DNA of 63,798 nucleotides, filler included, from Bipalium vagum (lineage: Eukaryota): assembly GCA_037834085.1 (NCBI GenBank). It is 3 parts of 3 records of this genome, joined end to end, with 100 filler letters (N's around TTAATTAATTAA, not from the genome) between each part and the next. Parts side by side here need not be neighbours in the genome. Positions count along the whole stretch, not along the records: positions 17,528 to 47,900 come from JBBMKC010270533.1; 2 more parts are not named here. The stretch is one strand, 5' to 3'. The first letter of the stretch is position 1. Each line of letters starts with the position of its first letter. The notes below the pieces were generated by a model. It searched no databases. It saw nothing but the letters and a program-made list of their open reading frames with translations, and was not told the DNA's origin. Shown here piece after piece: positions 5,016 to 53,250 of this stretch. A program made the position numbers and the translations under genes.

Positions 5016-5831
5016 TTAGTAGTTGGGCTCTATGAAGATGTATTTATGGTTTTCGACCAGTTGGATGTCCCGTTCTAGCTCGGTCATCTCGGCCTCCAAG
5101 TATTTCTTGTACTTCTTGAATTTCAACGTATCGTTGCTGTGGGACAGTTTCAAGTAATCCTTATTGAAATTATCCCAAGACGTTTTCAGCCCGTTTATCA
5201 ATTCCGTTCTCTGTTCCGGAGTCAGGAAATAGTTCGATTCATTGATAGCCCTCTCATTCAGATAGTGCTCATAGGCATCACGGGTATCGTTGACGGCCTT
5301 CATACGCTGTCTGATGTATTTGGGCACTCTACCGTAGCCGTCTTTGAAGATGAATTTCTTTTCCAAGCCCGAATGGGTTTTTGTGTTTTCCAATTTGAAA
5401 ATGTCTCCCTTCTTGGTGTCAATGACAATCTTCTCCGGCTTTATACTCGGTTGCATAATGGCGCAAATCGCGTTGCGATTGATGATATTCTGACTCTCAC
5501 AAATCGGCGGCAGGGTGATCCATTCTTTTCTGGTGGGAACTTTTTCCTTTTTAATGTTGCATTTGTAATTGAAGGAGCCCGTCGGCTTTTTCAATTTTCG
5601 GAAGGTATGGGAAAATTTCTTCAGAAACTCCTTCGGGTTCGGCGGTTCCTCCTGAGCCCTGCCCATTGTTTTGTGCTGCATGAGAGCGTTACTGGATGCC
5701 AATTTCTTGTTATTCTTGATCCCAGATCTGTACTTGGAAGTATATTTTGGCTCTTTGACAACCTTTTTGTTTTCTTTGGGAATTAAATTGCAAATAAATT
5801 CTTTTCTCTCCTGAGACAGAGGCCGATCCAT
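5016..5831 (-). CDS. ENKUR: Enkurin (ciliary/flagellar microtubule inner protein, calmodulin/TRPC-binding), intronless, 271 aa
   Basis: Motifs ICNLIP, KTMG..EEPPNPKEFLKK, GDIFKLE..SGLEKKFIFKDGYGRVPKYI, GLKTSW and LEAEMTELERDIQLVENHKYIFI match enkurin over its full length. First ATG at 5831 (MDRPL); the ORF-track start at 5846 is a TTG. Confidence 0.93.
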   Translation of the reverse strand: MDRPLSQERKEFICNLIPKENKKVVKEPKYTSKYRSGIKNNKKLASSNALMQHKTMGRAQEEPPNPKEFLKKFSHTFRKLKKPTGSFNYKCNIKKEKVPTRKEWITLPPICESQNIINRNAICAIMQPSIKPEKIVIDTKKGDIFKLENTKTHSGLEKKFIFKDGYGRVPKYIRQRMKAVNDTRDAYEHYLNERAINESNYFLTPEQRTELINGLKTSWDNFNKDYLKLSHSNDTLKFKKYKKYLEAEMTELERDIQLVENHKYIFIEPNY

Positions 5832-6029
5832 TAAATAATTTACCAAACGATTTGAATTGCCAATAACAAATCAATAATATATTAAATAATAAATCAATAA
5901 TTATACTTACATGGATTGGTATACACGTTAGTTCAGAATAATGAGCACTTTGAACATGACTAGGTAAAGATATCCACCGACTTCGATGAAGGGGTTTTTT
6001 GAAGAGGACAATACAAATATTATTAATTG

Positions 6030-8042: not shown

Positions 8043-10543
8043 ATGGACGTATTTTCTGCAAATAATAAACAGGTGAACGTTCTTCATTACTCTGGTCTCT
8101 TTTTTCTGAATACGGACTTGACATTTTTAGAAGTTCTTCGAAAAATTATTTATACGCGAAAGTAAAAGCAGATTTCACCGATCTCCTGTTCACATTCGAT
8201 AACACGACCGGATATTTAGCCAAGATCTTTAATATATGACGATCTTCATCATTGTATTCTTGAATCACACCCAAGTTGCTAGGTGACTATAAAAAACCAA
8301 TTTACACTTGACCACATACGTGAAACAATCTATAACGTGCTTTAAAAATAATGTGGATATCTACAGAGCCCTTTGTGAGGAGCTTGGTAACAAGGTAAAC
8401 ATTTGAAAATAATGACTTGGTTTTGTTGAAGGAAAATAGAAAACGAATGGTCTCTTTCGATCTCTATGATTCGATTTGATTTCTTTTGAGAATTCTTTAC
8501 TTTGATCAGATTTCTTTACATTTAGATCTATCTGATTACGTTCTTAATACATTGTTATGTATTTTAGGTTAGGTCGAGATTTTGTTAATAATAATAAAAA
8601 TAACGGACTAAAAGAACAATTGGTTAATATTCTTTTAAATATTAACATGATAATAATAATTGATAATAATATTAAATATTAGTAATATATATTAATAATA
8701 AATATTAATCATAAATAATAATGCAACTAATCCTTTCTTTTTAATCTCTTATGGCGCAATATTAAAAGAATTCAAATTTGATGAGTACGACGGTTATTCT
8801 TGTGACGTGATGAATCATGGAAAATTTGATTTGCAATACGGAACGAAGCAAATAATGTTGGGTAATTTTTATTACTTAAAAGAAACACACAGGTCAGTCC
8901 GACGTAATATTATGTTGTCCCATAAGTAATTTTGCTTTTTTAATCTCTCTATATATTGTTATTAGCGATCGTTTTTGCAATTCTTTTGATTTAGTTATTG
9001 ATCTTAATATTATCATAATCAATGTTGACTATTTTTGTTTTAGATATTTTAACTAATGGCAGAAATATTAGCAGGAGATCGACATGCGTTGCGAGCATGT
9101 ATACTATATGAATTTCTACATGGACGTAAAGTTAGTGATGCTCATCGAAATTTATGCAAAGTAATGGGTTCTGATGCCGTGCACTATAATACAATCAAGG
9201 CTCATTTCAAAAGGTTCAAGAAAAATGATTTCGATCTTTCAGAAAAACCAAAGCCTGGATGCCACTCTATCGATCTTAATGATACCATCAAGTCTGCACT
9301 TATGCTTAAAAAATAAATAAAAATGCCAGGGAACTTGCTTCAACACTCGATCTACCAAAAACTACTATCTATCGTCATCTGAGGAACTCAGAAAGAAGTT
9401 ATACCTCATGAACTGACCGATCAGCAAGAATTGAACCGTTGTGCCATATCAATCTTATTGCTCTCTTAAAGACGGACGTTTTCTTGGATTGACCAAATTA
9501 TTACTGGAGATGAAAAACGGGTTGAAACGGGCGAAAACCCAAAAAAGATTCTGAAACATGAAATCCACGGTAAAAGGTGTTGCTGTCAGTTTGGTGGGAT
9601 TTAAAGGGAATAATTTATCTTGAGCTGCTTTCTGATAATACCACAGTTACTGCTAATGTATCCTGTGAACAATTGCAGAAAATGATAGCAGCTTATCGAA
9701 GTCTGCGTCCAAATGCTGATCGCATAATGTTGTTGCATGATAACGCCCGCCCTCACAGTGCAAAACTGACTCGAGAAAAATTGAGAGAGTTGGATGTCGA
9801 AATCTTGCCACATCCTGCTTATAGTCCCGACCTTGCTCCAATCGATTTCCATTTACAGGTCGCTGCAACATCATTTGGATGGTAGGCGTTACCAAAATCG
9901 GAACAATCTTCTCACTGACCTCAATGCCTTCTTCAGCAGCCAGCTTTCCAGAATTCTACAATCGTGGATTCATCCAATTAACAGAACCTTGGCAAGAAGT
10001 TATCGAACATAATGGAGAAAATATTGATTTATAAAGATTGATGTTTTTAATAAATTTTGTAAATAAAGTTTTTTTAAAAAGAGTACAATTACTTATGGGA
10101 CAACCTAATATTTATATATAATAAAATTTAATTTTTTTTCTCGCAAATCGAGACCTTACGATCTTAAATGATTACACATTAGCCGAAATATCGGTAATTT
10201 TATTCATTTTCCTTTTCTAATCTTCTTTGACGACAAATTTGCGAAGAAGGACTCGTAAAAACGGTGAGGACTTGATTAATTAAAAAGAGATAATTACATT
10301 ACAAGAACGTCTTCGAATCATAAGCTGACTTTCGTGGTGACACTAATCTTTTGATTAACCTTTCATTAGAAAAAGAAAGAGTACTGCAAGACAAATATGT
10401 CAAGTTGTCCTAATATTTACAGTGAGTGGAAATATTTAATGTTGAACGTTTGTTTTGCCCTTGTTTACAACGACGCAAATACGGGAGACTGGGGCGAAAT
10501 GATGAATTACGACGAGGACTATTTTCCTGGCTTCAAATATTGA
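8043..10543 (+). pseudogene. Decayed multi-exon orphan gene interrupted by a mariner
   Basis: Coding-like blocks ending at GT donors: NNVDIYRALCEELGNK|, VRSRFVNNNKNNGLKEQL|, GAILKEFKFDEYDGYSCDVMNHGKFDLQYGTKQIML|, then after the mariner DLTILNDYTLAEIS|, ADFRGDTNLLINLSLEKERVLQDKYVKLS* and DANTGDWGEMMNYDEDYFPGFKY*. Internal stops are present and several acceptors lack AG. Confidence 0.35.
8910..10108 (+). mobile_element. Full-span, non-functional mariner (DD34D) element with both TIRs and a TA duplication
   Basis: Left TA|TTATGTTGTCCCATAAGTAATT and right AATTACTTATGGGACAACCTAA|TA (one mismatch). Transposase pieces RHALRACILYEF, TGDEK, MLLSVWWDLKGIIY, HDNARPH and HPAYSPDLAPIDFHL are broken by stops and frameshifts. 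Confidence 0.95.
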
Positions 10544-17527: not shown

Positions 17528-18566
17528 AATAAGATTAATTATACAAATAGGTCCTGTAATTAATATTTACAAGTATAACCTTTGTTTTTAATAACAGATT
17601 TTATACGATTAGGCATTGAACTAACTAAAAAATATTTATATTTTGTTAATATTTTTATATATCAACCACGGAACTACCTATGTTGTTCAATAAACACATT
17701 AAAAAGATGTTTGTTCTAAATTTATTTTCAACTGTTGATCATCCAACCCTGACAGAAATGCTTAAAAACTATTGATATGTAAGATAAAAGATGTTAATAT
17801 AAAATCTATTTAGTAAAGTAAAATCCACGTATAAATGGTATTCAGGTTTGATATAACAAGTTTCTTAAAATGAAAACAAATTTTAAGGGAATGTTTTAAT
17901 AATTTACTAATTAAGCAATTATAAATCGATAAGGATTATAATAACAATAGAGCGATTACACATTGATACTGTAAAGAGAAATGATTAAAATCATTTAACA
18001 GGCTTAGTATGGATATTAGATTAGAGAAATATATTCAGAATTGGGGTCAAGGTGCTAGAGTGACCATTTTCTCTCACAAAGTCAGTTTGAAGTTACTGGC
18101 TCAACACAATCGTCCCATAAGTCATGCAGATCATGATAATAATTCTTAGTGTATTTCTGAAATTAAATTTTTATGACAGTGATCAAATAATGTCTTCATT
18201 GCTATTAAAATAATATTAAGGATATTAATAGTAAAACCTCGATATTTTTATTATTCTCTAAATTTTAAAAAGAATTATTTTAACGAAATTTAAAATAAAA
18301 ACAAAAATTTTAATCAATTTTTAAATTAAATAATTAATTTAAATGCATTTTAAAAATATTAAAATGTCAACTTTTACAATTTTTATATTAATAATAGTTT
18401 TCTTATATTATTTGAAATTTTTTAAAAATATTAATTAAATCTTAATTAAAAATAAAATACATCTATTTGTTTTGTTGAATTACCATTATTTATCTATTAT
18501 TAGATTTAAATAAATTTATTAGAACAAGTATAACTTAATTAAAAATAAAATATTTATTGCACAGAA

Positions 18567-21315
18567 ATGCCTAGATATCGTAGCAGAAGTAGAGAAATAA
18601 AGGTACGTTTCTTTTTTCTAATTATAATGTCTTATAAAACGTCCAGGATGATAGACGTGATAGACACCATGATGATCATCGAAAACGAAAATCAAATGAA
18701 TCAAGTATAGATAATCGAAGAGAAAGCGATGAGTACTTCAAGTCTAAATTGAAAAATTATTTATGATTATTACAGCTCTAAACATCTTTCAAGGAAGGAT
18801 AGACGAGAGAAAAGACGGTCAAAATCGAGATCTTCTAGTCCGAAACAAAATCACAACGATCCTGTTAAAAAGAAAGAAGTCAACGAAGTAAAAATAGCGT
18901 AAGTGAATTTTTACAATTTATACGTTATATTGATTTTTTAATTTCATATAAAATTTGTAAATTTAAATTAAATTGTATCAAAGTGAATTCAAATATGAAA
19001 TTGTATTTAGGTATTTTAATAAATTTCAAATATGTTTTAGCTTTTTAAAATTTAAATATTTTGAACTAAAAAGTAAAATTCTTGAAATGATACGTTTCGC
19101 TTTTGTGACAGATACGGTTTATGTTAAACGAAATTGCCCTTTAGATAAATTGGTGATTTTATTCGTAAGTAGATTTAATTATGAAATGCATACAATGTTT
19201 AACATCACCAATTTGTCCTTACTTATTTCTTCAAACTGCTTTTTTGTCTTATTAATAAAAAAATGAGCATTTCCTATATTTTTACTTGAAAGGAGAAATT
19301 TGATAAATTCATTTATTTTTATGTTCCTCAAAAATTCGTCTTCTTTATTGACAAGTTATACAATTTATTTCCAGCATTCGATCAGCTCGAATTTTTGCTA
19401 GATTATAAATTTGAACGAAATATTGATATAAATAGTGTTTTTTATAATTAGAAATAATCAATAAGATATCTTCAAATTTTAAAATAAATTTGAGATAAAT
19501 GCGCTACCAATACTACTACTGAGAGTCAATTATTTGGAAAAAATATTTTTATAACGCTTCTTTACAAAATTACAATGAACGATGTAAAATCGACTACGAG
19601 AATTAACATGCCTGAGAACTTTGTTAATTTACTAATTTTACGAGTTATAGTTTTTGCCTTATCCTCTTATCTCTTTGTTACAATACTACAAAATGCAGTG
19701 TAAATAATATTCTTATTAAAAATAACGAGAACGGTTCTAAATCATCAAAATTTTAAAGCAAACGATTCACTATGACCACGATTATTTTTATTTAATGTAA
19801 GAGAACCTATGCAATAGACAAAAAGTTATGATTGGTTAATTTTTATTGCTTGTGAATTTTAAGTTTGCATTTTCGAATAAATCTATCGATTTTAAAATTT
19901 TGAAAAAAACCATAAAAAATGTGTGTACCAATATTGATTATTAAAAATTTGACGGTTACCTTCATGATAATTGGACGAATTGTTTTTGTTTATTCAAGTC
20001 TGTTGGATTTCTCTGATTTCAATTGTCTTACAAAGCATAATTAACGTTTTTCTAAAACCAGGATTGTGTAATTCATGTTCTCACGTGTTGAATAATTAAA
20101 AACCATTGGACATTAAAAACCGTGGAACTGGCAAATAACGGTTATAGTAATATTTATTTCATTTAACTAGTATTAACAATTCTTTTATTTTACAGCGTGT
20201 CATGGTTACCGAAAAAATGGTCTCGTAAAATAATTGGTGCGCTTTAATTAACAAATTATTTATGATTTCTTCATTTAAAAAACGAAGGTTTTATTGATAA
20301 TAATTTCAATTATCACAGAAAGCAACAAAAAACAGAATCATTCAATGGTTTTAAAATTGATCATTGATTATTGATTTCCATTTTCAGATCGGAAGACGAA
20401 GACGATGATCAAGATAGTCGAACCATTTTTGTTTGGCAATTGTCCAAAAAAATTCGTCACAGCGATTTGAAAGAGTTCTTTTCCCGTGCTGGTGCTCTGA
20501 AGGATGTACGTCTGATCAAAGATCAGCGTACCAATCGTCCCAAAGGCATAGCTTATGTGGAGTTCTGCAAGGTTGAGTCCGTTGCCAAGGCTCTGACATT
20601 CGCAGGATCGCGACTGCTTGGCGTTCCGATTCAAGTGAGATTCTTTTGTGTCGGCAGACAGTATTTTAATCGATTCTGGCACTCCCAATCAGATAAACCA
20701 GGTCATGGACAAGCCTGATATCAGTGACGGGTCGTCGGGTCTGTTGGACAACGATTATGCGGACCGCGGCGGAGTAGGATTAGGTAACACGGGTCGATTG
20801 GCACTTATGGCAAAGTTGGCCGAAGGTACGGGACTAGAGTTGCCGAAACCGGCTCTGGAAATAATGAAATCGTCTTTGGGCAGTCAGAATTTCGCGGTCA
20901 GTGACATCGTGAACATGAAGCGTCAAGTTGCACTGGCCAGTGAATGCTTCGTGCTCGGGAACATGTTCGAAAATCCGCCGAAAAGCAGTAAATCCCAGCT
21001 GGACGCGTCGTTTTTCCAGGAATTGAAGGAAGATGTTGAAGAGGAGTGCAATCGACATGGGAAAGTTATCAATGTTTTTATCGACAAGCGTAGCCCGGGT
21101 GGTAATGTTTACACGAAGTGTGCTAATGTTGAAGATGCGCGGAAATGCGTTAACGTGATGCACGGAAGATATTTCTCAGGTTTGTGTTTGTTTTCGCAGT
21201 TTTTTGCTTGTCTCACCATCATTTTGTTCTCTTAGGTCGAATCGTGACTGCTACTTTTATAACTACGAGTACTTTTCATCAAATGTTATTGTCTTCGAAT
21301 TCTGGTGTTAAATAA
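18567..21315 (+). CDS. RBM39: RBM39/CAPER-type splicing factor (RS-rich N-terminus, RRM1, linker, C-terminal UHM), about 352 aa, lacking RRM2
   Basis: Exons 18567-18602, 18647-18732, 18776-18898, 20388-20634, 20693(or 20702)-21179 and 21236-21315, all GT-AG and phase-consistent. Motifs DSRTIFVWQL..KIR..DLKEFFS, KGIAYVEF, LLGVPI, TGRLALMAKLAEGTGL, CFVLGNMF, GNVYTKC and MHGRYFSGRIVTA. Confidence 0.9.
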
Positions 21316-21936
21316 TCATTTGAAAACGGTTGTAAATACATTTAATAAAGTTTTGATTTTATTATTTTATTTTTTCAAGGAAAACCTAAAAATATCGATT
21401 TTTACTGTATCTTATTCAATATTTGATTGTCAAATTCTATTTTAATTTTAAAAATTATTTATTTTCAAAATCATAGTGAAGACGAAAATTAGTAATCTCT
21501 GTCAATTAAAATTATGCGCCATATTTTTGTGAAATTTAACTAAATAAGTGAAAATTGATGTGAGTATTGCATTTTGCCGAAATTAAATTTAATATTACAC
21601 AAATAGCAACAAGATTTATTATAGTAAAACCAGTTAAAGATTTTTTTAGTGGAAAAAGATAAATTGATAATATTCAAAACTGAATTATAGCTGAAAAAAA
21701 AAGATGAACTGGCGTAAGATTTAAGATTATTTAGTTTATATGGTATTGCATCTCTTCATCTTTCTATTAACATACATGTATTTATATCATTTTCAATAAA
21801 TTCGCTCCACTTATTTTAATGAATTGCATAGAAAATATTTCGTCTGTGGTTTAATCAATCTTGTTTTATAAGATATCTTTTTTGTATCCTCATTATTTAA
21901 ACAGGCAATTAAATGCCTCATGAATGATAAGAATGA

Positions 21937-22823
21937 TGTTACATTTAGAAATATTTTGGGTTTGCCAAAGGCACAACCGCGACGATTATCATAATACGGA
22001 ATTGTGAATAATAATATTTATTTCAATTTTTTTTTAAAAAAATTGAATTTTCGTCAAAAAAGCCACATCAAAAGCCGTCTTTGAGCGTAGGGATTGGTGA
22101 TCGTAGAACACTTCCTACGACTATATAAGGAAACGCCAATCAGCATAAATGACCCCAAAATCTAAAAATAACTTTAAAAGCGACACAATTTTTTTTGGAA
22201 AAGTTTAGTCAAAAGGTGTTAGAGAAGATTATTCGACAGAGGTATTCAAGAGGATTATAAACTCGAAAAATTATGACAGATCCGCAAAAAGATTTAACAA
22301 ATGGACCAAGCGAGTTTTGGAATCCCTAGGCGACCTGAAAAGGGCCTAGTGGACGACATGAGGTTTCCTTGTCGCTCCTGAGGCTATTTACCTATTGTTT
22401 TTCTTTTTCAATAATTCATTGTTAATTATAATATTTTTCTTTAACTGTAAAATTGTCTCTGGTAATTATTTCGATTGGTGATAATTAATATTAAAATTTA
22501 AAAATTTTATTCGATTGCATATTTTGTTATTATTCATTGATATTTTGCGAACAGTGGAACATTTTAACGGGGTGCTTATTAGACATTAAATTGATACTGA
22601 TTCCGAGAGTGATTGAGATTTCTGTTCAGTTTTGCATATCAATAAAGTTTTGTTGTGATTGTTTTTAAATCAATTAGGGTGTGGATAACCTATTATTGTG
22701 GGAGTTTTGATTCAAATCGAGTTTAACTTTGTGCAGCGACAATAGAATTACGAGCACAACATTTTAAAGTTAAAAGATATCGATTACGAGCGAAAGGTTC
22801 TTTGATAGTGTATAATAGTAACA
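21937..22823 (+). mobile_element. Solo LTR-like element (887 bp)
   Basis: Perfect terminal inverted TGTTAC...GTAACA, TATA-like CTATATAAGG near 22121 and AATAAA at 22641. No clean TSD. Confidence 0.55.
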
Positions 22824-25228: not shown

Positions 25229-26266
25229 TTAGGATGATTCATAAGTAATTTCGTTTATTATTTAAAATAATAAAAACAAAATTATATTGTTTCAAAGTAA
25301 AGGCCATTTGAATCAATAGTTTTAAGCCATCTATCTGCAAGTTGCGGGATCCCTTGTTGATACCATTCCTTGTTCTTGAACCTGAAAAACTCTTGGCACG
25401 CCGTTTCGATCTCGTCCAAGTTATTGAATCATTGAGAAAATGTGTCATTGATCGAAAAAAATGGTAATCCGATGGGCAAGATTGGGACTGGATGTGGTAA
25501 CAGTTCAAAAGATTTACATTCTCTGATTTTTTTGATTGTTTTCTAGCCGTATGAGGTTTTGCATAATCTTGCTGTAAGACCACTCACTTTTGATTGACCA
25601 AGGCTGGATATCTCTGCTGCTTGCCCAGGGTCCAACCAATGATTTTTTTTGAGGATTGGTAAAATATATCCAATTTTCATCAGAAGTTACAATTTATCTA
25701 ATGAAACGATAGACACGCAGATTTTCCAGCAGCTTTCTACACGTTTCCATACGTTGCTTTGCCTGATTTTTAGTCAATTCGTGAGGTACTTCTCTACATC
25801 GTTTGTTGACCTAAATGATTCCATTAAGGTATCAGACAACTGTTCTAGTTCTATTCGATGGTTTGGTCTCAACAACATTACGTAGCGCTTCTTTATTCAC
25901 TGTTACTGGCCTATCGGAACGTGATTGATCGTATAGATCATTTTCACCTTCATTAAATTTTTTGAGTTAGATTTGGACTATCAATTAGAGATCACACCTC
26001 CAGCTTTCCTTTCGCATATTTTTCTGGCAGCTTCACTTGCTTTGAATTTTTGCTTCCAATAATGTCGAATCAAAGTGCGAATTTTGAGATTTTCCTTTTC
26101 TTTCAGTTAACATTTATATAACATTAATTAATTAACCTAATGGTAGAAAATTTATTAAGTTTCTAATTGATATACAAATCGATATATTCAAATTATTTTT
26201 CAACTAAAGAATTACTTTACTAAGCTACTAAAACAAAAAAACAAAATTACTTATGAATCACCATTA
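25229..26266 (-). mobile_element. Internally deleted mariner element with TIRs
   Basis: TA|TTAGGATGATTCATAAGTAATTT ... AAATTACTTATGAATCACCATTA|TA. Reverse strand encodes LQQDYAKPHTAR and CPSDYHFFRSMTHFL. Confidence 0.88.
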
Positions 26267-29334: not shown

Positions 29335-32300
29335 ATGCAAATTATTGATAATACAAATTATAAATTTGAAAGAAAATTTACTGATTGTGATACATATCAA
29401 GTTAAAATAACCACCGAGTTACTGGAAGAACTAGAAAACTGTCAAGTAATAGTACTACTTATGTTGTTTGTCTTATAGTATTCATAATTAAGAATGTCAC
29501 TGAAATTGAACTAAATATCAAAGGAAGCTCTGGTGTAATATTCGTCTAGTTTTCGTTTATCCTCGAATTATATATTTTATCTTATAGACTCTTACTATAC
29601 CATCATCGAAAAGTAAAAAGTCAAAAGTATTTGATTTAAATATTGGCTCCATATCAAGAGGAGAAAAGGAAAGTTTTGAATTGAATGCTTTTAGGTACAC
29701 TTTAAAAGTTTAAAAATAATTTAAAAGTAATTTTAGGTTAAATAAACGGGTTGAATCTTTAGGATCTTTGCAAGTGCGATTAAATGTCCAAGCCACTTCA
29801 AAAGTGTACGACATGACAAAGAAAAAAATATCAGAAGTTGAAGACGAATCGAAAAAGCATTGTGTTAAAGAATTGAAATTGGAAAAATTTCCAAATAAAC
29901 AAAGACTAGCTTATAAAGTAATGAAAAATAAGGAAGCTCGAAAATCGGAAGTGAATTTAAGCAATTCTCAAGGAACGTTTGTAAATTCGAATTCAAACGA
30001 CAGACCGATTGAAAAGGAATTTACGATTAGGTCGGTTTTCTAAAAAGGAATAACGTCAACGTTACTCTGTTAACCATAAATTTAGACAAAAAATTCTGCA
30101 TTTATTAGGGGTTAAACCATTGACCAAAGACGCATTGTTGCTTCGCTTACAGCGCCTGAACGTAACCTCATCAGATCGCCAAGAAGTAGATAGATATTTG
30201 TCTCAGGTATTTTGAATATTAAAATGGCATTATTTTTTTATATCACTCAAGTAAACCTCATTATTTATAATCAAATAATACTTTCACTGATAAGTGTGAT
30301 TTATGGATTCCTCTGCTGTCTCAGCTAGAGTCTTACAATTACACTTTTTTCCTCTTATCATCCCATGAAAATCTGTCACTTATTTTATCAAGCTTCATAA
30401 ATAAATTTCATCAGAAAGCGAAAGTTTACCATTAATTATCGATCATTATTGGTTAACACAAATTTTCTATTAACCGATGACGACTTCATTTTTACTGGGG
30501 CTTTTTTTTCATCTTTTCTTTCATCTCTGGATTTAAATTGCTTTAACAACTGTTGGAAAATTCTTACCAAATAAATTTGGTGATAATAATAGAACTTTTT
30601 GACTTTTTTTTGTTTCTACAAGTGAAAAACAATTGTTCATTTGTCACACTAAGAGATTAGTGTTGTGGAAACCCAATTTCGACAAATCCCTGAGAAATTT
30701 TATTTATCGATTATCTCGTGATTTTGTTGATGGTTTATAATTGAGATAAAATGGTTAACGGATTACATTGTTTATAAAACAAAGTATGATCGATGTAATT
30801 ATATTGAACAGTTTTTAATGTTCAAGCTGAAATTGTCCGGATGTCAATTACGTGGTAGCAAGCAGCATCGTTTGTACGAATTTTCAAAAATTCATTTTTT
30901 AAAAAAAATTACTATTACAAGATATTGATTATATAATATTGTAATTGATTTAATAAATAAAATTATTCAAATCGATTTCATTATTTTCTGCATTCTGTCA
31001 GCACTGTTTTATTTAATATATTTTATTTTCACATTTTTTCTAGCTATCCACTCTAAACAGGGAAAACATGTATCAACTTTCAAATCAATTCATTCCCGAA
31101 CTTCGTGAAGATTGGTCGTACTACAATGACGAAGAAAAACGCAAAGTTGCCAAGCTGAAATCAGATTCCAGATCAAATATTTCCAATCGTATTCCTGTAT
31201 GTGTAGTTTTTCAGTCATTTATAGTTCCATTACGATATGCTATTGATTTTTTAACTTTTTGTTAAAGTAAAACGTGTGACCTTACAATTCAACAGAGTAT
31301 CTTAAAATAAACCAGCTATTGTTGAATTCAGAATTATGCGATCACATGATTTTTGACTTGACATATATTGAATCGAAATCGATAGCGCAACTCTTCCAAA
31401 TGATTGGGTTTTTCATTAGTCTATTTTTTGTGCAGGTATCAAAACATTCCACTCAACCTCCTGTCAGTCCCGACTCTCACGAAAATACTCGCCCAAAGGC
31501 ACCACTCGCACCTCACCCGTCCCGAACAAAAATTGCCGCACTCGATATGATGGCCAAAGGCGTGAATATCGGTGAAGTCAGTAAAACGTTAAATGTTCCA
31601 GAGAATTTGATTAGTTCTTGGAAGTCGCAAGAATTTCAAATCCGACAGGTAATTATGGTGTAGATTATTCAGCCGTATTATTGATTTAACAAGTAAAACA
31701 TTGAGAGGAGGTTTTAAATGTTACTTATCGGGAGAGATGTCTCCAGCGAATTCCACACACTCGATTTAAATTGAATGAGGCAGCTTGATTATTTCTTTTA
31801 AACCATTGAGAAAGATATAAAATTTTCGTTTCATTGATAATTGTCTTGAACTCACTAAAATCGTACGAGTTTGTCTTATCTGTGCCTGTTAATGGTCTGG
31901 GTTCAATGATAACTAATAATTTTCATACCAAGTTCAATCGATTGGTTTTAAATAATCAATATCGTTAATATAAATAAATCTATAAAATAAAATTGATAAT
32001 AATAATAATATTATTATTTTCAAATAATTGCTATTAATCTCGATAGATAGTTGAAAAAGTTCAATGAAAATCATCGTTCGATATTTTGATTGGTTATGAG
32101 GAATTCTGAATTGGTTGTTTGGATAATTGTTCAATGGCACCGACAACTGGCGTATGTGAAAAATATTAGTTCACCCATCCTTTAAAAACATGATTGAGAT
32201 AATTATTATTAAATTGGGAGAAGAAAATTGTTCAAAAATGTTGTCTATTTTTAAATAAAATATTAGTATGGTAAATTAAATCGACTTACATATAATATAT

Positions 32301-34505
32301 GGAATAAAATTTTTTTATCGATTATTTCAATTTCATGAAAATGGTAATGTGAAAAATATGATTTTAAATTTATTTTTTGTGAAACGCAGTGTGTAATGAT
32401 TTTTTAATCGTTCAATCTTTTAATTTAAAAATATTGTTCTAGTGAAGCACATTATTCAATATTTTTCTAAGAATTTGAAAGTTGTGATTTCTGTGTTGAT
32501 AACTGGTCGATTTTTTGTCACTGATCAATTTTACATGCACAAAACAAGAGTTTTCTGCAGGAAAACATTATACTTCAAAGTTAAATTTGATTGGTCAAAG
32601 TCAAATATAGATTTGTTGATATTGATCTACAAATCTGGAATTGCAAGTTCTAATGATAGCTTGCACACTATTACGCCTCGTTTACAACGAAAACTTGTTT
32701 AAATATTTCTGGCACATGTACGTGTTTAAAATCTATTGAGGAGGAGCCGCAGCTCGATAAATGAGCTAACTAGTTTGGTGTAGTTAAATTTTTTTGAGGT
32801 GGGTAAAATAACCCACCACGTATCCTAAGCATCACAAAATGCGGGCACATTTTATACCAAAATCCTGCAGAGTTAACGGAACTTTTCGGCTATAATAGAA
32901 TTTTAATGATTTTTTGCTATAAGTTTTCCAGTATTATTAATATGGACTTGATTAATTTCAGGTACAATGTCTCCCATTAAAGACAGTGATTTCAGTATTG
33001 TAATTTTTATTGATTTTTTATAAACAGGGTTTTTTATAAAAATTCACTATAAAATTTATTATTTTTATGAATAAAATTTCTTAAAAATGGAATTCTTATC
33101 AGTAAATTGAACACTGTTTTTTATGTGAACATTTTTTTAAGAATTATGAGAATGGTAAAAGGTCAAACGACTTTATACCCCAGAATGCTCAACAAAAAGA
33201 AAACACAGTCAGCCCGGTTAATGTAACTAGGTTAAACTTACCATCCAGTAATGCCAACGAAATGTCTGCCTATAAAAGTCACAGACCGTTTGATGAGACT
33301 TTTGTTGATTCTGATAAGCAGTCCTCTCGTATGGCACTGGTCAATGGCAACAACAGCAATAATAAACGCCGCTTAGAACATTCAGACAAATCGCATTCGA
33401 CAGATCAACCTGGCACAAAAAAAGTGCATTTATCTCATAACGATACACAGTCTAGTTCAAGTTGTGAAGTAACACCGAAATCAGATATATCACACGCTTC
33501 GATTTCTTCATTGCAAACAAAACCGAAAAGTGATAAAAGCAAAGAATTTCCGTCTCAAAAGTCCAATCCAAAAACATTATCTGAAACACAGAAACAATTC
33601 AATGCAGCATTTGAGGAATATTCAAAATTGTGTGAACGGTTGAAGGATTGTGAAACGAAAATTGAAACGTTGCGATTAAAATGTAAAAATGGATCAGAAG
33701 ATTACGGGGTTGGTATTATCGATTTTTTGTTTATTATATTTTTATTTATTATTATTATTACCCAATTAAAAATCTCGTTCGAATAAAATTGGTGTTAATT
33801 GATTTCTTTTTTCTTATAATTATAATTATTCAGATTAGAAATAATCTATATTTAAATATCATTTTTCTACCATCCAATCAAATATTATATTATTTTAAGT
33901 TTGGAATTTTTTATCTCATCAAAATAATTTAAGATATTTTACCATCTTTTTTGTGGTTTTATGGAAAAAATACAGCGAATTTTGTTTTGTTTACCATACG
34001 AAACTTAATCACATTTTTGGACTAGTCAAATGACCAGGTCTGTCTGGTAAATCAAACCACTTTGATTATGTCAATTTGATTATTGATGAAAAAACTCGCA
34101 CTTCAATCTGAGCAAATATTTTTTGAAAAATCGAGCAAAAATAAAAAATCGTTAATTTGCTTGTTATCAATTGACAAATCTGTAAAATATTTAATGAAAA
34201 TAATCAACGTTTTTTGTTTTTTTAAAATACTAATGTAAAGTAATAAAATCATTATTTAAATTGAAAATTCGATATTTTTTATGATTTCATAAAATATTAA
34301 TGTAAACCGATAAAATCAATATTTCAGTATGAAAAACAGTAGAGAAAATTGAACATTGACATTTTTTCAGATAATTTATGGACATGCCAAACGCCTTTTA
34401 GCCGATATGGAGTCACCAAGATTCAAGACATTAACAAACCGAGTGAAAGCACTCGAAGCGGAAATGTTTGAGTTTCTGAAACTCTTGAATTCCAGTAGTG
34501 TTTGA
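29335..34505 (+). CDS. ELL: RNA polymerase II elongation factor ELL, about 580 aa, with an extra psq/CENP-B-type HTH exon
   Basis: Exons 29335-29445, 29493-29534, 29588-29694, 29737-30030, 30086-30206, 31044-31196, 31436-31648, 33142-33708 and 34371-34505 are phase-consistent. ELL motifs: YQVKIT, LGSLQVRLNVQATSKVYDMTKKKISEVEDESK, RQKILHLLGVKPLTKDALLLRLQ, ELREDWSYYNDEE, and an occludin/ELL C-terminus QFNAAFEEYSKL...GSEDY. Confidence 0.85.
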
Positions 34506-40800: not shown

Positions 40801-41802
40801 CTTTTTCCTTTAAGTTTATTTAAAGAATAAAATGACATTCAAAATTATTTATTAATATCTTCATTTCTTTACTCCTCCTTATTATTCAGCAGACATTTTT
40901 CCAATTGGTGTCAAGCCTAAGGAAGATTGGATTCGTAATGAAAAGAGAAGATTTAGGATAGAGAGGGACATAAATAAGGACGGCGTGTTGGATATAAAAG
41001 AAATTCAAAATTGGCTTTTACCTGAAACTAACAGTGGTGCTGATGCAGAAACTAAACACTTATTTCATCTGGCAGATGTTAATAAGGTAAATAGTTGTTA
41101 AAAATATATCAAGCTAACGAATAATAATTCATTATTATTTTTTTCAATTGTTCCCTATTTTCTAAACTTTTGTTCCATTTGTTGTCACTGAGTATTTAAA
41201 TAAACTTCCGAAGAATTTGAACATAATCGGTTGTCAGTATGAAATTTCTCGTTTTTATATCAAATTTCGAATTAAAGTTTTCGTTTATTATACTCCTGGA
41301 TCTTGTATATTTTTTTCTCAAGTGTGTAGATCTATTTCTCACAACGTGTTTTAAAAGTATCCCAGTTGAAGACAACTTTTTATGATAATATCAATAAAAA
41401 TGTAATTTGCTATTGAAACTTTTCCAGGAAGGAGACTAATAATAAAGATGAAGAACGTTTTAATGAATTTGTTTTTCAAAATTAACTGAAATAGTTAACG
41501 AAGATTTAAGGATGTAAAAATTATATTATATTTTGTTGGCTTTATAAATGTAAAAATTAAAACTTGATGAAAATTCTCCAGAAGAAATTAAAATGAAGAA
41601 AACTTCCCAATACTAATTTGGACTTAGTTCCATTTTTATTTTGTTATCTGAATGCTGCGCTATATAAATACAATAAAATATGATTTATTTTTTTCATTTG
41701 TAGGATGGTTTCCTTTCAAAATTGGAAATGCTAAATAAATACCACATTTTTGTAGGAAGTCGAGATGAACATGATTTCTATTTTAATCGAGAAGATTTAT
41801 GA
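37872..41802 (+). CDS. CREC-family ER-lumenal EF-hand protein (calumenin/reticulocalbin-like), 296 aa
   Basis: Exons 37872-37949, 37990-38105, 38164-38351, 38883-39034, 40697-40757, 40890-41086 and 41704-41802 join in frame. Signal peptide; YDHTAILG..EAEKF..MSPEESK; EF loops DINGNGLIESEE, DLDNDTLLNKSE, DLNDDLVVDVNE, DINKDGVLDIKE and DVNKDGFLSKLE; FLHPE; IFVGS; C-terminal REDL. Confidence 0.9.
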
Positions 41803-42885: not shown

Positions 42886-45800
42886 TCAAAAATTAAAATT
42901 CTCTCTCAGGTTTTTCATATCGTACAAATCAGCTGTATACTTAATAACTTTTTCCCTCTCAGTATATGAGATCTGTATTAGAGATCTGTGAATCTCTTCC
43001 ACTAACATTCGGGTCTTGATTTTTGGAATCCATATCTTTCCTTCGAACGTTTTGACCAGATTATCTTCCAAGCGGAAATAAGATGTAATTCTCTTTTCAA
43101 TATCCTCTTTAATCTGATTGATTTCATTTTCATTATTCTGCCATTTATATACTGCCTTTTCGTTTACTGTATTTATTGTTCTGGTCTTCCTTTTTTCTGT
43201 CTTTGGATCTTCATGAATCATCATACACTGAGAACACATACAACAGATTTTTCTTGATAACATGTCTGCATTTGTGTGCTCAATTCCTTTTCTGTATTTA
43301 AGCTCTATATCTAGACTGCTGAGATAGTTCATCCACGTCTGAAATTTTGCTGTTATTGGCTTTGTCGTCTTGAACATGAATTCTATTGCTTTGTGATCTG
43401 TTCTCACCAGAAATTTTTTTTCATACAAGTAATGCTTAAAATATTTAAAGAAGTAAGATTGCTAATAGTTCCTTACTTGTGATGCAGTAATCCTTTTTCT
43501 TGACTGTTCATTACATGTTATCCGTACGCGATCACTCTCTCTTTTCCATTGTATTGTCTGTCTGTGACAACACTGCTCCAAGCGCTTCAAAACTGGCGTC
43601 AGTATCTAAAATAAACGTTCTTTTAAGGTCTGGAAAAGCTAGCACTGGCGTTTTCGTTAGCGACTCTTTGAATTCTTGGAAGGCTACATTGCATGCTTCG
43701 GTCCATATTAATTTTTCATTGTTCTTCCCACATAATTGTTCTAATACTCTTGATTTTTTTGCATACCCATTGATAAATTTCCGATAATAATTACAAATGC
43801 CCAAAAAGCTTCTTAAATTTTTTAAACATCAGAACCTTTCGAAGGTTCTGATTGCCTCAATTTACACTGGATCGGTCTTGATTCCTTGTTTGTCAATTAC
43901 ATGTCTTAGTAATTTGACTTCTGTTCTTAATAGATGGCATTTCTCTGGATGCACTCTAAGTCCTGCTTCTTTTATTCTCTTTAGCACTTCATTTAAAACG
44001 GCGAAATGATGTTCTATATCCTTTGTGTGAATCATAATATTATCTAAATAGACCATCATGTTTTTCAAATTTCTTAAAACCTTCGTCATTAACTCTTAAA
44101 AAGTTCCGGGAGCAGTGGCTATACCAAACGGCATTCTTGTAAAGCAAAATTGTCCTTGTTATGAAAAAGCTCTTTTCTTGTGAATTCGTTGTTAATTCAA
44201 CCTGGTAGTATGCATTACCCAAGTCAATCGTGCTAAAATATTTAGCTCCTTCTAATCTGTCCAGTAGATCCTCTATATTTGGCATCGGAAAAGCCTGACG
44301 TTCAGTTACCTGGTTCAGCTTTCTAAAGTCTAGACATAATTTGATATCTTTTCTTTCTTATTTCCAAACGCAAATTAGTGGCGTGTTCCATGGCAAGTTG
44401 CATCTTTTTATTAGCTCTACAAGTGGGACCCACATGACCTAAACGAAAATTAGAAAAATCGACGGTTTGAACTTGTCACATTTTGCGCAACAGTAATGAT
44501 TTTTTTCTCGACCGGGTTGTGACGACTGATGAGAAGTGGATAATGTACGACAACAGACGGCGGTCAGCTCAATGATTGGACCATGATAAAGCTCCGAAAC
44601 ATTTTCCAAAGGCGAAGTTCAAGAGCATCAATAGAAAGAGAGCTATTCTATTGCACGACAATGCTCAGCCGCATTTCGCACAGTTGACCTTACAAAAATT
44701 GAAGAAGTTGGACAACGAAATCCTGCCACACTCAGCATACTCACCAGACCTTTCGCCAACAGACTACAATTTCTTCAAACATTTGAACCACTTCTTACGG
44801 GATAGATGTTTCAGAAATGAAGAGGATGCCAAAAATACCTTCAACGACTTCATCTCTGCCAGAACACAGGAATTTTATGATAGTGGCATAAAGAAACGTG
44901 TGTCTCATTGGACTAAGTGTATTCAAGCTAATGGTGCATATTTTGCTTAATAAACTTTAGTCTTACTTGAAAATTTTTACTTTAAAAGTAAAAAGTCAAA
45001 AAACGACATTCATTTCTAAACAACCTAATATTATTCCGTTCTTAAATAAATTTTTTATTGCTTCATCGATTTTATCTTCCAGATGCATTGGCTGTCTCCA
45101 CAGTTTCTTGTTAATTGGTTCATCAGTAGTTTTGATCTCGTGCTTCATCATTTTTGTACATCCAATATCCCACCGATATGCCATGAATGCTTCTTTATTT
45201 TTTTCTATTACTTCCAAGAGCTTCTTATCTTCGATGGTGACTAATATCTTCTTTGATCTCCGCAGGCGCTCTTCATCTTTAACAACTCTTCCAAACTTGA
45301 CCTCAATGTTGCATACCTGTGAGACCTCCCTTTCCATCGAAATCTTCATTAATTTAAATCCGAACTTTGTCAAAAATTCTGTTCCTCCAATCAGCTCTGG
45401 TGAAACCTGCTCAACAATTGTGAATGACATTGACTCAGCTCTATCTCCAATATAAACATCAACTGTTACTTTTCCTACCACATTCATTACACTATTATTC
45501 GCAGTCTTTATGGTCTCCATGCATCTTTGTATTTCTACATTGCCTAGTTCTAGAAACTTATTCCGACTCATTACATTTATGCAAGCTCCAGTATCCAGTA
45601 AGCATTCTATTTCGTGTCCGTGTATATTAACAGTTATACTTGGCCTTCCTTTCATCGCGTTATATTTAATACTCTGTTCATTAAAACTATTCAGCGTTAT
45701 TATCTCCTTTTCATCTCCATTCTCAAAATTTTTCTTTAAAAATCTATTAAACTTTTCCAATTCTCTCTTTTCCCCTGACACTTTTCAATTTTTACTACCC

Positions 45801-50820: not shown

Positions 50821-51639
50821 TTATTTTTTAAAATGTTCGTGATTTATCAAAAAAAGATATCCTTAAGAAAAAATTAAGTTCAAGTAAATTTGATACGCTC
50901 ATCTTTACTTTTTTATTATTATTTGTGTGAAATGTGGTCTGCCTTAATTAGTTTGCACAGCAATGTGTATTATTTTTTAGCAAAAATGATATTGATAATC
51001 ACGAATGACTTCTCAGATTTTTCGTTTATTATTCTTGTAATCAGTGGAATCATCACTTATTTATTTTATGCTTTTGGGGTTTAATTATTAAATTATTCCT
51101 TCTGTTTTCAAATTTAAATGATTCATAAAGTAACCAGATCGACTTAATCGTTTAATAATATTAAAAAAAAGAGAAAGAATAATTAAAACGGTAAATTAAT
51201 CAATTAAAGTAGTACCTCCGAACGGAGACAATTTATTAACGTGAATTGACAGATAAATTAATAAATTATTTTCCTTTCTGGAAAATAATAATAATTTAAT
51301 TATCATATCGATTTTCACTTTTAGCAATATATTTTCCATTCGGCTGATTTCAATTTTAATTTTATTTCATATATTCCATTATTATCTTTATATTTAAATT
51401 ATCTTTATAGAAAAAGTCTAGTAGAACTTTAATCATTTTCTGCAACATTTCCATAAGAATAATATAATGTCTGGGTTGTTGCATTTATACAAAAAATATT
51501 AGAGATGTCGTACGATAAAACAAAATTCAAAATTTTTCTATGATTTTGTTATTTTCTAATTTCTGTTTCCTTTTTTCTTAAAATATTTGTGAATTTAGAA
51601 AAAACGTTTGTAAGTTAAAAATATCCTACAAACTCGAAA

Positions 51640-53250
51640 GCAGACTACTGCGCAATGGTATACAGTGATATGTTTGCCAGAAACAATTTCAGTTCTTCGA
51701 AGAACAAACATGAAACAGAGAATCATTCTTTATCACGACAATGGTAGTTCACAAACAGATCTAGCAACAACAAATTTTTTATCATCTCAAAATAAAGAAT
51801 TATTGCGTTATCCACCATATAGTCCAGACCCAACTTAAAACCACTTTTTCACATTTCCATAAGTCAACACGATTTCTTGGATATTTTCAACAATTTCTGT
51901 TTTTGGTCTAGCAGATCGTGGTGCATTTTTAATGCTCACACCACCCGAATTGAATTTGGCAACCCACTTTTAAACAGTTTTTAATGTAGATGAATATTCA
52001 TTTAATTGTTGAACATTCATTTAATTGTTAATCAAGGTCGCTCTTGATTGCCATTGGACTTAATCATTTAATATTCAAATATTTAATTACTGGTCGTATT
52101 TCTTCTATCTGCATTTTTCTTAATCTGCTTAAATTTGACACTCAAAAATCACATTACTTAAATAGCACGGCCTATTTTAATGTATTTTGTTAATGGATTT
52201 TGTTTACTGAATATTATTTTTATAATATATATTTACAAAGGTTTAAATATGGCACCGCGGTATTTATTATTCATCGAACTTTTCAATCCACCCTCGTATG
52301 CATCACAAACTTATAAGTAATATATGAAGTGTATGGTGAGATTGCATTAAAAGAAAGCCAATGTCAGAATTTATTTGAGAAATTCCGAAGAGATAAATTT
52401 TAACTCAAAGAAAACCAAAGATTCGGCCGTCAACTAGATCTCAATAACACCGAAATCAAATACTTAATCAATGTGGATCATCACAAAACAACACGTGACA
52501 TTGCAAGCAAAATCAGTGCATGACACACAGCCATCGAAATTAATATCAAGCATATGGGTTACGCGAAAAAACTCGATTTATGGATTTCTTACCAGCTTAA
52601 CAAAACTCACATCATACAACCAAAATTGTGATTTGCTTAATAAATATAATAGAAATAGTCCATTTTTTTTAAACAATTGGTAATTGATGATAAAAAATGG
52701 ATTTGTTAGAATAATGTTCATCGAAAAATATCATGGTGCAAGTCAGAGGAAGCTTATATAGTCCAAGATTGTCAAGGAATCATATACTTCGAACTTTTCT
52801 TAAATAGTCAAAGGATTAATTCTAATATTTGCATTGATCATTTGAAAAAATTAAACGTGCACACGAAAAATACCTAAAATTGGAAAACCGTGAAGGCATT
52901 GTCTTTACATCACAATAAAAAACCTCAAAATTCTTTGGACACTCGACGAATTGTCACATGCACAATATATCCAAGACCTCGTTCCTTCTGATTACCATAT
53001 GTTTCCCTATATGCAAAACTTCTTAAATGATAAAACTTTTGCTAATTATGATGGCGTAAAATCCGAGTTGTAGCAGCTTTTTACAGAGAAACCCGAGATT
53101 CTATGAATGAAGAATGTTAACCTTCATGGAAGATGGTATCAATTTCTTAATAACAATGAAAACTCATAATTTAACAAGAATATGTTGTTTCATATAGTTT
53201 CTTGTCTTGTTTCTTCAAAAAGATCGGCAAGCATTTTCTTGCCAACCCAA
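51640..53250. mobile_element. Cluster of abutting mariner remnants (plus fragment, minus 5' end, plus near-full decayed copy)
   Basis: Plus 51640-51865 IILYHDNGSS..RYPPYSPD; minus ~51870-52297 KNAPRSARPKT with terminus ...CCACCCTCG|TA; plus ~52300-53250 VYGEIAL..QCQNLF and LVPSDYHMF with terminus CTTGCCAACCCAA|TA. Confidence 0.8.

Follow-up and report, generated by a model that had tools for sequence, protein, structure and literature searches.

Can a protein of the RBM39/CAPER family persist in an animal without the second of its RNA recognition motifs (RRMs)? The question is raised by a 63,798-nt stretch of DNA from Bipalium vagum (the window), in which a plus-strand gene of RBM39 type, at 18567-21315, encodes the first RRM (RRM1), the RBM39 linker and the UHM domain, with a 58-nt intron where the second RRM (RRM2) would be expected. 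The loss of RRM2 is real: it is carried by two species and spliced across in one of them. The second species is represented by a 1,110-nt contig whose nucleotide sequence (L001) encodes a 349-aa protein (P0001). Our preferred reading, to which we assign a probability of roughly 0.55, is that this is an intact RBM39/CAPER gene of likely flatworm origin, devoid of RRM2 and likely encoding a stripped-down adaptor, and slightly likelier a second copy than the only RBM39 of its lineage.

Domain composition

The RRM encoded at 20422-20634 is of the RRM1 type. Its top four PDB matches are the RRM1 domains of RBM23/RBM39 (2cq4, 4yud, 2mhn and 7zap; E 5e-23 to 3e-21), and, with profiles for RRM1, RRM2, linker and UHM built from 28 three-RRM homologs, it scored 109.8 bits with the RRM1 profile versus 38.1 with the RRM2 profile. 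The next exon, 20693-21179, encodes the RBM39linker domain (Pfam PF15519; 60 bits against a cut-off of 23, E 3.8e-16) and an RBM39 UHM (E 1.4e-18), which, together with the GT...AG bounds of the intron, bears out the initial annotation, in which the sequence that normally follows RRM2 was seen to follow RRM1 across 58 nt.

That annotation also held that there is no hidden RRM2 exon, and the profile searches agree: in the six frames of the window, the RRM1, linker and UHM profiles gave one match each and the RRM2 profile found only a cross-match on RRM1 (27 bits, versus 101.5 with the RRM1 profile). Short-word and profile searches with six flatworm-type RRM2s likewise returned only RRM1 cross-matches and chance matches of 4-10 residues in the window. 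RRM2 is missing from the window, from a separately assembled Logan contig and from L001, and only about 8 tail residues remain. The lost stretch has a median length of 100 residues over 164 homologs, in line with the proposed domain-precise loss at equivalent beta-4 positions coincident with an intron. The further claim that RRM2 is missing in its entirety stands for the domain but not for its end, given that the second half of the last strand and the C-terminal tail persist, replacing those of RRM1. Judged by its sequence, the gene is a member of the RBM39 family by descent, in a derived rather than the canonical three-RRM form.

Gene structure

The best-scoring GT-AG model against P0001 comprises six coding exons encoding 352 aa, the length predicted earlier, separated by introns of 44, 43, 1489, 58 and 56 nt; the model and P0001 have 299 residues in common. 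The boundaries of exon 2 are less certain than those of exons 4-6. At its 5' tip, L001 contains an in-frame stop upstream of the ATG. All elements of the gene are on the plus strand:

18567..18602, plus strand: coding exon 1, start codon and beginning of a short RS-like (arginine-serine) region; aligned to L001 and P0001
18647..18732, plus strand: coding exon 2, basic, RD-rich low-complexity region; best GT-AG model against P0001
18776..18898, plus strand: coding exon 3, RS dipeptides
18899..20387, plus strand: intron 3, 1,489 nt, the one long intron of the gene; a strong unused acceptor ends at 20195
20388..20634, plus strand: coding exon 4, RRM1 from beta-1 through the first beta-4 residue; 76 of 80 residues identical to P0001
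20635..20692, plus strand: intron 4, 58 nt, phase 0, GT-AG; the site of RRM2 loss, spliced out in L001
20693..21179, plus strand: coding exon 5, final part of beta-4 and tail of RRM2 type, followed by the RBM39 linker and most of the UHM with its R-x-F; 149 of 162 residues identical to P0001
21180..21235, plus strand: intron 5, 56 nt, phase 1; other genome-derived RBM39 models break at the same position
21236..21315, plus strand: coding exon 6, UHM end and stop codon

At the glycine where intron 5 lies, the genome-derived models P0067, P0163 and P0171 deviate from the consensus. Retention of intron 4 is ruled out because its 58 nt break the frame and bring in a stop at 20716-20718; the RNA fold of this intron is unremarkable (z 0.31).

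Assembly and transcript support

One sequencing run (X1) contains the stretch, and a single unbranched Logan contig of this run spans 17575-22261 with 0 differences, 0 gaps and a flat depth of 23.3. No RNA run is listed among those that contain the stretch, which is uninformative on expression. At 85% likeness, a single contig covers 20518-21181, a result that excludes a near-identical RRM2-bearing copy and is still compatible with an old paralog.

The transcript of the second species gives independent support. L001 is without introns and aligns free of gaps on either side of the join, positions 270-509 to 20395-20634 and 510-994 to 20693-21177, so that the junction 20634>20693 proposed for this gene is present in a mature transcript. 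The alternative acceptor at 20702 is rejected, the alignment fixing the acceptor at 20693. L001 and the window gene share 75% DNA identity, and their synonymous sites are saturated (proportion of synonymous differences, pS, 0.95-0.96), whereas nonsynonymous divergence (dN) is only 0.033 in exon 4 and 0.046 in exon 5; just past the join, the residue is unchanged in 29 of 30 codons. Because the second species has the same join in its transcript, with saturated synonymous sites and low dN, the loss is old, expressed and under strong purifying selection.

An assembly collapse or a faulty gene model has a negligible chance of being the explanation. Run X1 is possibly the window's own sample, contigs omit rare variants, and the databases do contain faulty models that fuse or skip RRMs (P0006, P0222 and P0184). 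Against this, the separately assembled contig shows 0 differences across the gene, hence no sign of collapse, and the transcript of another species joins at the window's GT and AG; L001 refutes the artifact in practice.

Occurrence among homologs

The homologs compared are 315 proteins, drawn from the best 110, the best 120 of 447 and the best 150 of 709 matches, of which 214 are informative in that they include RRM1 together with the downstream linker or the UHM. The three-RRM layout is nearly invariant: among these listed matches, 212 of the 214 keep RRM2, and the two that do not are P0001 and P0184. The latter is a gibbon UniRef model in which a garbled stretch replaces RRM2, likely a frameshifted retrocopy. 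Two other genome-derived models, P0006 and P0222, skip parts of RRMs at other places. In P0006, from Schistosoma curassoni, the first third of RRM1 runs directly into the final two thirds of RRM2, the two being cut at equivalent positions; this is probably a gene-model skip, yet it is a second in-frame hybrid RRM.

Three Logan/ENA proteins (P0204, P0208 and P0201) are divergent RBM39s of the flatworm type. P0204 and P0208 have an eroded linker and an RRM2 that scores only 79-80 bits, versus 125-156 in the remaining rows of this type. RRM2 may be decaying in other fast lineages too. The ESM Atlas yielded ordinary RBM39 clusters only. No natural RRM2-less RBM39 was found in the literature searched, subscription papers lying outside that search.

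The closest known proteins compare as follows. RBM39/CAPER-alpha/HCC1 (human; Caper in Drosophila, RBM-39 in C. elegans, Rsd1 in S. pombe) has in common with this gene the RRM1 stem-loop residues, PF15519, the UHM and a basic or RS-like N-terminus, but measures about 460-560 aa against 352 aa here; the gene of the window has no RRM2, an RRM2-type last strand and tail on its RRM1, few RS dipeptides and no acidic motif that could be found. The neodermatan RBM39s (Schistosoma, Fasciola, Echinococcus, Protopolystoma and Cichlidogyrus) share the W in RNP2 and the P-I-Q in beta-4, but their full-length models all keep RRM2. RBM23/CAPER-beta is an RBM39 duplicate whose RRM1 is the best PDB match here; identity with it is rejected because the UHM is present and RRM2 absent in this gene, whereas RBM23 keeps RRM2 (2dnz). 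RBM23 is not known to carry a UHM and would be the copy that lost it, the reverse of the situation described here.

Anatomy of the join

Intron 4 falls between residues 161 and 162. In P0001, residues 155-160 fit the RRM1 tail profile (75-100%), whereas beyond the join N163, V165 and D167 are absent from all 106 RRM1 tails and present in 22, 90 and 14%, respectively, of 131 RRM2 tails. The spacing to the linker is 20 residues, close to the mode of 19 for RRM2 tails. The AlphaFold model, with a mean predicted local distance difference test score (pLDDT) of 73 and values of 94-97 for the blocks of residues 91-160, places beta-4 at residues 161-164, spanning the join, so that the domain is a hybrid, the body of RRM1 being finished by the old tail of RRM2.

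Of the residues with which human RRM1 contacts RNA (PMC10477243), F156, Q159, R192, K194, Y198 and G220 are conserved here; R188 and R191 have given way to Q and N, and the gained K186 and R189 restore the charge. The human RRM2 residues that read U4 and U5, K322 and R329 (PMC10477243), correspond by spacing to Q161 and K168. In the UHM, the acidic helix and R-x-F are kept, and the modeled domain superposes on CAPER UHM structures with template modeling (TM) scores of 0.82-0.86 (of target) and root-mean-square deviations of 1.7-2.0.

The N-terminal region is a basic, low-complexity stretch of 92 residues in which RS/SR dipeptides number 5 (3 in P0001), compared to a median of 16 in 85 full-length homologs and 6-10 in neodermatans. 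The acidic N-terminal motif present in 59 of these 85 homologs was not found by its profile in the window; because an assembly gap precedes 18567 by about 1 kb, loss of the motif is only likely, not proven. Exons beyond this gap are outside the sequence at hand.

Origin of the loss

The ends of the RRMs in the homologs bear on how RRM2 disappeared. We examined 193 RRM2 tails, of which 22 were flagged as odd, and 171 RRM1 tails, of which 9 were. In the genome-derived models P0029 (Schistosoma margrebowiei), P0063 (Cichlidogyrus) and P0108, intron-like text directly follows the lysine of RRM2 beta-4, and in the transcript-derived P0036, P0043 and P0052 a four-residue insert occupies the same site, so that 6 of the 22 odd tails are altered there. 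The insert looks as if splicing had used another donor, 12 nt inside the intron, and would disturb the RNA-binding end of RRM2. These breaks after the lysine point to an old phase-0 intron at the start of exon 5, which flatworms and arthropods appear to share. In the RRM1 tails, a break at Q|I is found only in P0001 and in none of the other 170. A history in which introns existed at both sites and the exons between them were lost is, in our estimate, improbable.

The simplest history, which we favor only tentatively and at slightly less than even odds, is a single deletion between near-identical codons, those for P-I-Q in RRM1 beta-4 and P-I/M-K in RRM2 beta-4. Such a deletion would have ended at the pre-existing phase-0 intron and placed the old donor behind RRM1; no new splice site would be needed, the frame would be kept and a complete hybrid RRM would be rebuilt at once.

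Alternatively, a new donor could have arisen after the P-I-Q of RRM1, a valine codon (GTN) supplying the GT, and been spliced to the old acceptor, the skipped exons being deleted later. The switch from RRM1 to RRM2 type falls at the intron, residue 161 is of the RRM1 type, V is the next residue in 78% of RRM1 tails and intron 4 opens with a valine codon, all as this scheme would have it. It requires two steps, however, the named neodermatans have I rather than V at that position, and the remainder of intron 4 is unlike an RRM1 tail, so that we regard it as unlikely, if clearly less so than the loss of exons between two introns.

Intronization, in which the coding stretch of RRM2 itself became intron 4 and left a beta-4 fossil at its 3' end, is less credible still. 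When the frame of exon 5 is extended back into intron 4, its final six codons have G and P as in RRM2 (shuffle p 0.0018); the intron also has a high GC content (0.43) and a T tract that is weak. Nevertheless, the match is post hoc, with p rising to 0.018 for 7 codons and 0.08 for 10; with synonymous sites saturated, a neutral fossil should have been erased; and the ancestral intron would first have had to disappear from this very site.

The initial annotation linked the loss to the very short introns of this genome, and in the corresponding adaptive scenario RRM2 was given up because such introns do without RRM2-guided choice of the 3' splice site. Four of the 5 introns of the gene do measure 43-58 nt. 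According to the parts of PMC4040987 on which we draw, intron-length modes lie at about 32 and 58 bp in Gyrodactylus, and tapeworms have a bimodal distribution; yet the RBM39s sampled from tapeworm and monogenean groups with such modes (Echinococcus, Taenia, Hymenolepis and Cichlidogyrus) keep RRM2. As flatworms with equally short modes retain the domain and intron 3 of the gene itself measures 1,489 nt, the link does not hold up, and we consider the adaptive scenario very doubtful.

Phylogenetic position and copy number

Among the matches listed, the closest named ones are from neodermatan flatworms. In all trees the gene is nested among RBM39s, with its exact place unsure because of a long branch. 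Quick mixture-model trees computed without RRM2 put P0001 with neodermatans, with SH-like approximate likelihood ratio (SH-aLRT) support of 93 in a tree of 50 rows (60 were chosen and 10 left out) and of 95 for an 11-row clade in a tree of 31 rows. As all 10 other rows of this flatworm-type clade keep RRM2, the loss is derived.

The domains have diverged unevenly, identity to neodermatan RBM39 being 83% in the linker, 63% in RRM1 and 46% in the UHM; UHM identity to other animals is 0.43 here versus 0.65 for neodermatans. The window also contains, at 5019-5870 on the minus strand, an intronless enkurin gene (PF13864) whose product is 35-39% identical to those of other animals. This enkurin groups with cestode enkurins (support 100) and is no more diverged than cestode enkurin.

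We consider it slightly likelier that the gene is a derived second copy beside a three-RRM gene than that it is the sole RBM39. What favors the derived copy is the presence of two RBM39-labeled transcripts in Schmidtea, the divergence of the UHM beside an enkurin no more diverged than that of cestodes, the paucity of RS dipeptides and the lack of the N-terminal motif. The Schmidtea count comes from Solana 2016 (PMC4978528), whose table of RNA-binding proteins (supplement file 5) lists two transcripts (comp1932 and comp4802) with RBM39 as the best human match and one with PUF60; no RBM39 row was present in the 9 of 21 supplement files of PMC3439970 that were searched.

That the gene is the only RBM39 of its lineage, whose RBM39-dependent splicing would proceed without any RRM2, has somewhat less than an even chance. 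Purifying selection between the two species is very strong, each named neodermatan sampled has one three-RRM type, no close three-RRM relative appears among the best 110, the best 120 of 447 and the best 150 of 709 matches, and human RBM39 deleted for RRM2 is partly active. The two RBM39-labeled transcripts of Schmidtea speak against it, as do the retention of RRM2 in the other 10 rows of the flatworm-type clade and the acceleration specific to this gene together with its missing N-terminal motif and depleted RS dipeptides, a pattern typical of a derived copy. The fuller version of this possibility, in which the sole RBM39 of a flatworm lineage has a hybrid RRM, no sequence-specific reader of the 3' splice site and no sulfonamide degron, and possibly regulates itself through a cassette in intron 3, is to be held more tentatively still.

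Proposed function

The functions of the human domains, as described in the sections of Campagne 2023 (PMC10477243) on which we rely, allow a role to be proposed for the RRM2-less protein. In human RBM39, stem-loops are bound by RRM1, which has little preference for sequence, RRM2 recognizes N(G/U)NUUUG and picks a poison-exon acceptor, and the UHM and the RS region hold U2; proteins deleted for RRM1 or for RS are dead, those deleted for RRM2 are partly active, and the combined RRM2 and UHM mutant (mRRM2 + mRRM3) is dead (PMC10477243). The engineered human construct without RRM2, which is nuclear and partly active in splicing rescue according to the same sections, has the RS-RRM1-UHM layout of the present gene; the construct is laboratory-made, whereas the natural gene also exchanged its RRM1 tail and evolved for a long time without RRM2.

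Since human RBM39 is partly active without RRM2, the loss would be tolerable. By analogy with the human protein, RRM1 would grip a hairpin, either a U1 stem-loop or one in the pre-mRNA, and the UHM would grip the ULMs of SF3B1 in the U2 small nuclear ribonucleoprotein (snRNP), so that the protein could still stabilize U2 at the branch point but would have no say of its own in 3' splice-site choice. It would no longer read N(G/U)NUUUG, the usual U-rich splice-site motif, and the choice of acceptor would be left to other factors. As the combined RRM2 and UHM mutant is dead in human cells, dependence on the UHM should here be total. Exactly the parts indispensable in human are kept, suggesting that the protein would act as a bridge from the hairpin to U2.

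The initial annotation assigned both the reading of single-stranded RNA and the sulfonamide degron to RRM2, and the available portions of PMC10477243 and PMC8363639 agree, so both are gone here. The degron must be absent because sulfonamides bind the central helix of RRM2 (PMC8363639, in the portions used), and both sulfonamide resistance and a gain-of-function allele map to RRM2 in the part of PMC10154236 consulted. The literature searched yielded nothing usable on invertebrate DCAF15. Alternatively to an adaptor role, the protein could act as a damper: as a second copy with a weak RS region and no RRM2, it would take up SF3B1 ULMs and RNA hairpins in competition with full-length RBM39 rather than promote splicing. 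The binding residues of the UHM and RRM1 are kept while RS/SR dipeptides number 5 in the window gene and 3 in P0001 against the median of 16, and a human protein without RS is dead (same sections of PMC10477243). Neodermatan orthologs are likewise low, at 6-10 dipeptides, and the second copy that such competition presupposes is only postulated, so we regard a damper as improbable and retain the stripped-down adaptor. As to the degron, aryl sulfonamides are synthetic, and its loss is therefore without evident natural meaning.

Several observations weigh against the reading of the gene as an intact, flatworm-derived adaptor with a hybrid RRM and a three-RRM sister copy. The adaptor role is drawn from human RBM39; the RS domain, essential in human cells, is weak, and no domain has diverged more than the UHM (46% identical to neodermatans). 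The pLDDT falls after the join (69 for block 161-170, below 50 for 168-181), the alignment behind the fold was made with three-RRM proteins, and residue 161 is Q, of the RRM1 type, rather than the K of 98% of RRM2 tails, a state that a new donor would explain as well as a deletion does. For relatives, intron positions were taken from faulty gene models instead of genomic alignments. Assignment to flatworms depends on quickly computed trees in which P0001 sits on a long branch, and FastTree with 197 rows places P0001 outside the neodermatan clade, with four divergent rows. The RBM39-labeled Schmidtea transcripts are known by label, and a close three-RRM relative of P0001 is absent from the best 120 of 447 matches, which gives no support for a second copy.

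Genomic setting

The G+C (GC) content of exons 4-5 and introns 4-5 is 0.36-0.49, compared with 25% in the surroundings, whereas the sister transcript has 36% GC overall; 20388-21179 is a local base-composition shift in the Bipalium vagum gene. Immediately downstream of the gene, 22012-22500 is a high-copy repeat (summed depth up to 8,718, versus 23 on the gene).

In intron 3, the spare acceptor scores equal to the real one, and all 5 donors tried lead to an early stop, so that 20196-20290 (plus strand) is a possible candidate poison exon. It is present although RRM2, which drives such autoregulation in human, is gone.

Other features of the window are minor. Weak Pfam matches below the cut-off include EF-hands at 40856-41098 (plus strand), which we take to be calumenin/reticulocalbin-like, Occludin_ELL at 33106-33783 (plus strand) and a helix-turn-helix (HTH) at 31280-31660 (plus strand). 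Broken pieces at 9053-10009, 25242-25583, 44576-44947 and 51614-51835 presumably derive from mariner-like transposases, and 43535-45784 (minus strand) presumably from a broken Ty3/Gypsy-like pol, both labels resting on motifs. No tRNA was found in the window.

Implications

RRM2 is the domain credited with 3' splice-site choice and with drug-induced degradation of RBM39. An expressed and conserved natural form that lacks it puts to the test what was found with the human protein, in which RRM1 is indispensable whereas RRM2 merely helps, and provides a ready-made protein for asking what RRM1 targets in cells. The gene further illustrates cleanly how a domain can be lost between tandem repeats at a phase-0 intron, with a predicted hybrid fold left behind. 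Should the genome also contain a three-RRM copy, this would be a more ordinary case of divergence after duplication. If instead this is the sole RBM39, then an animal could do without RRM2, a domain kept from fission yeast to humans, and the central task of RBM39 would be the bridging of hairpins to U2.

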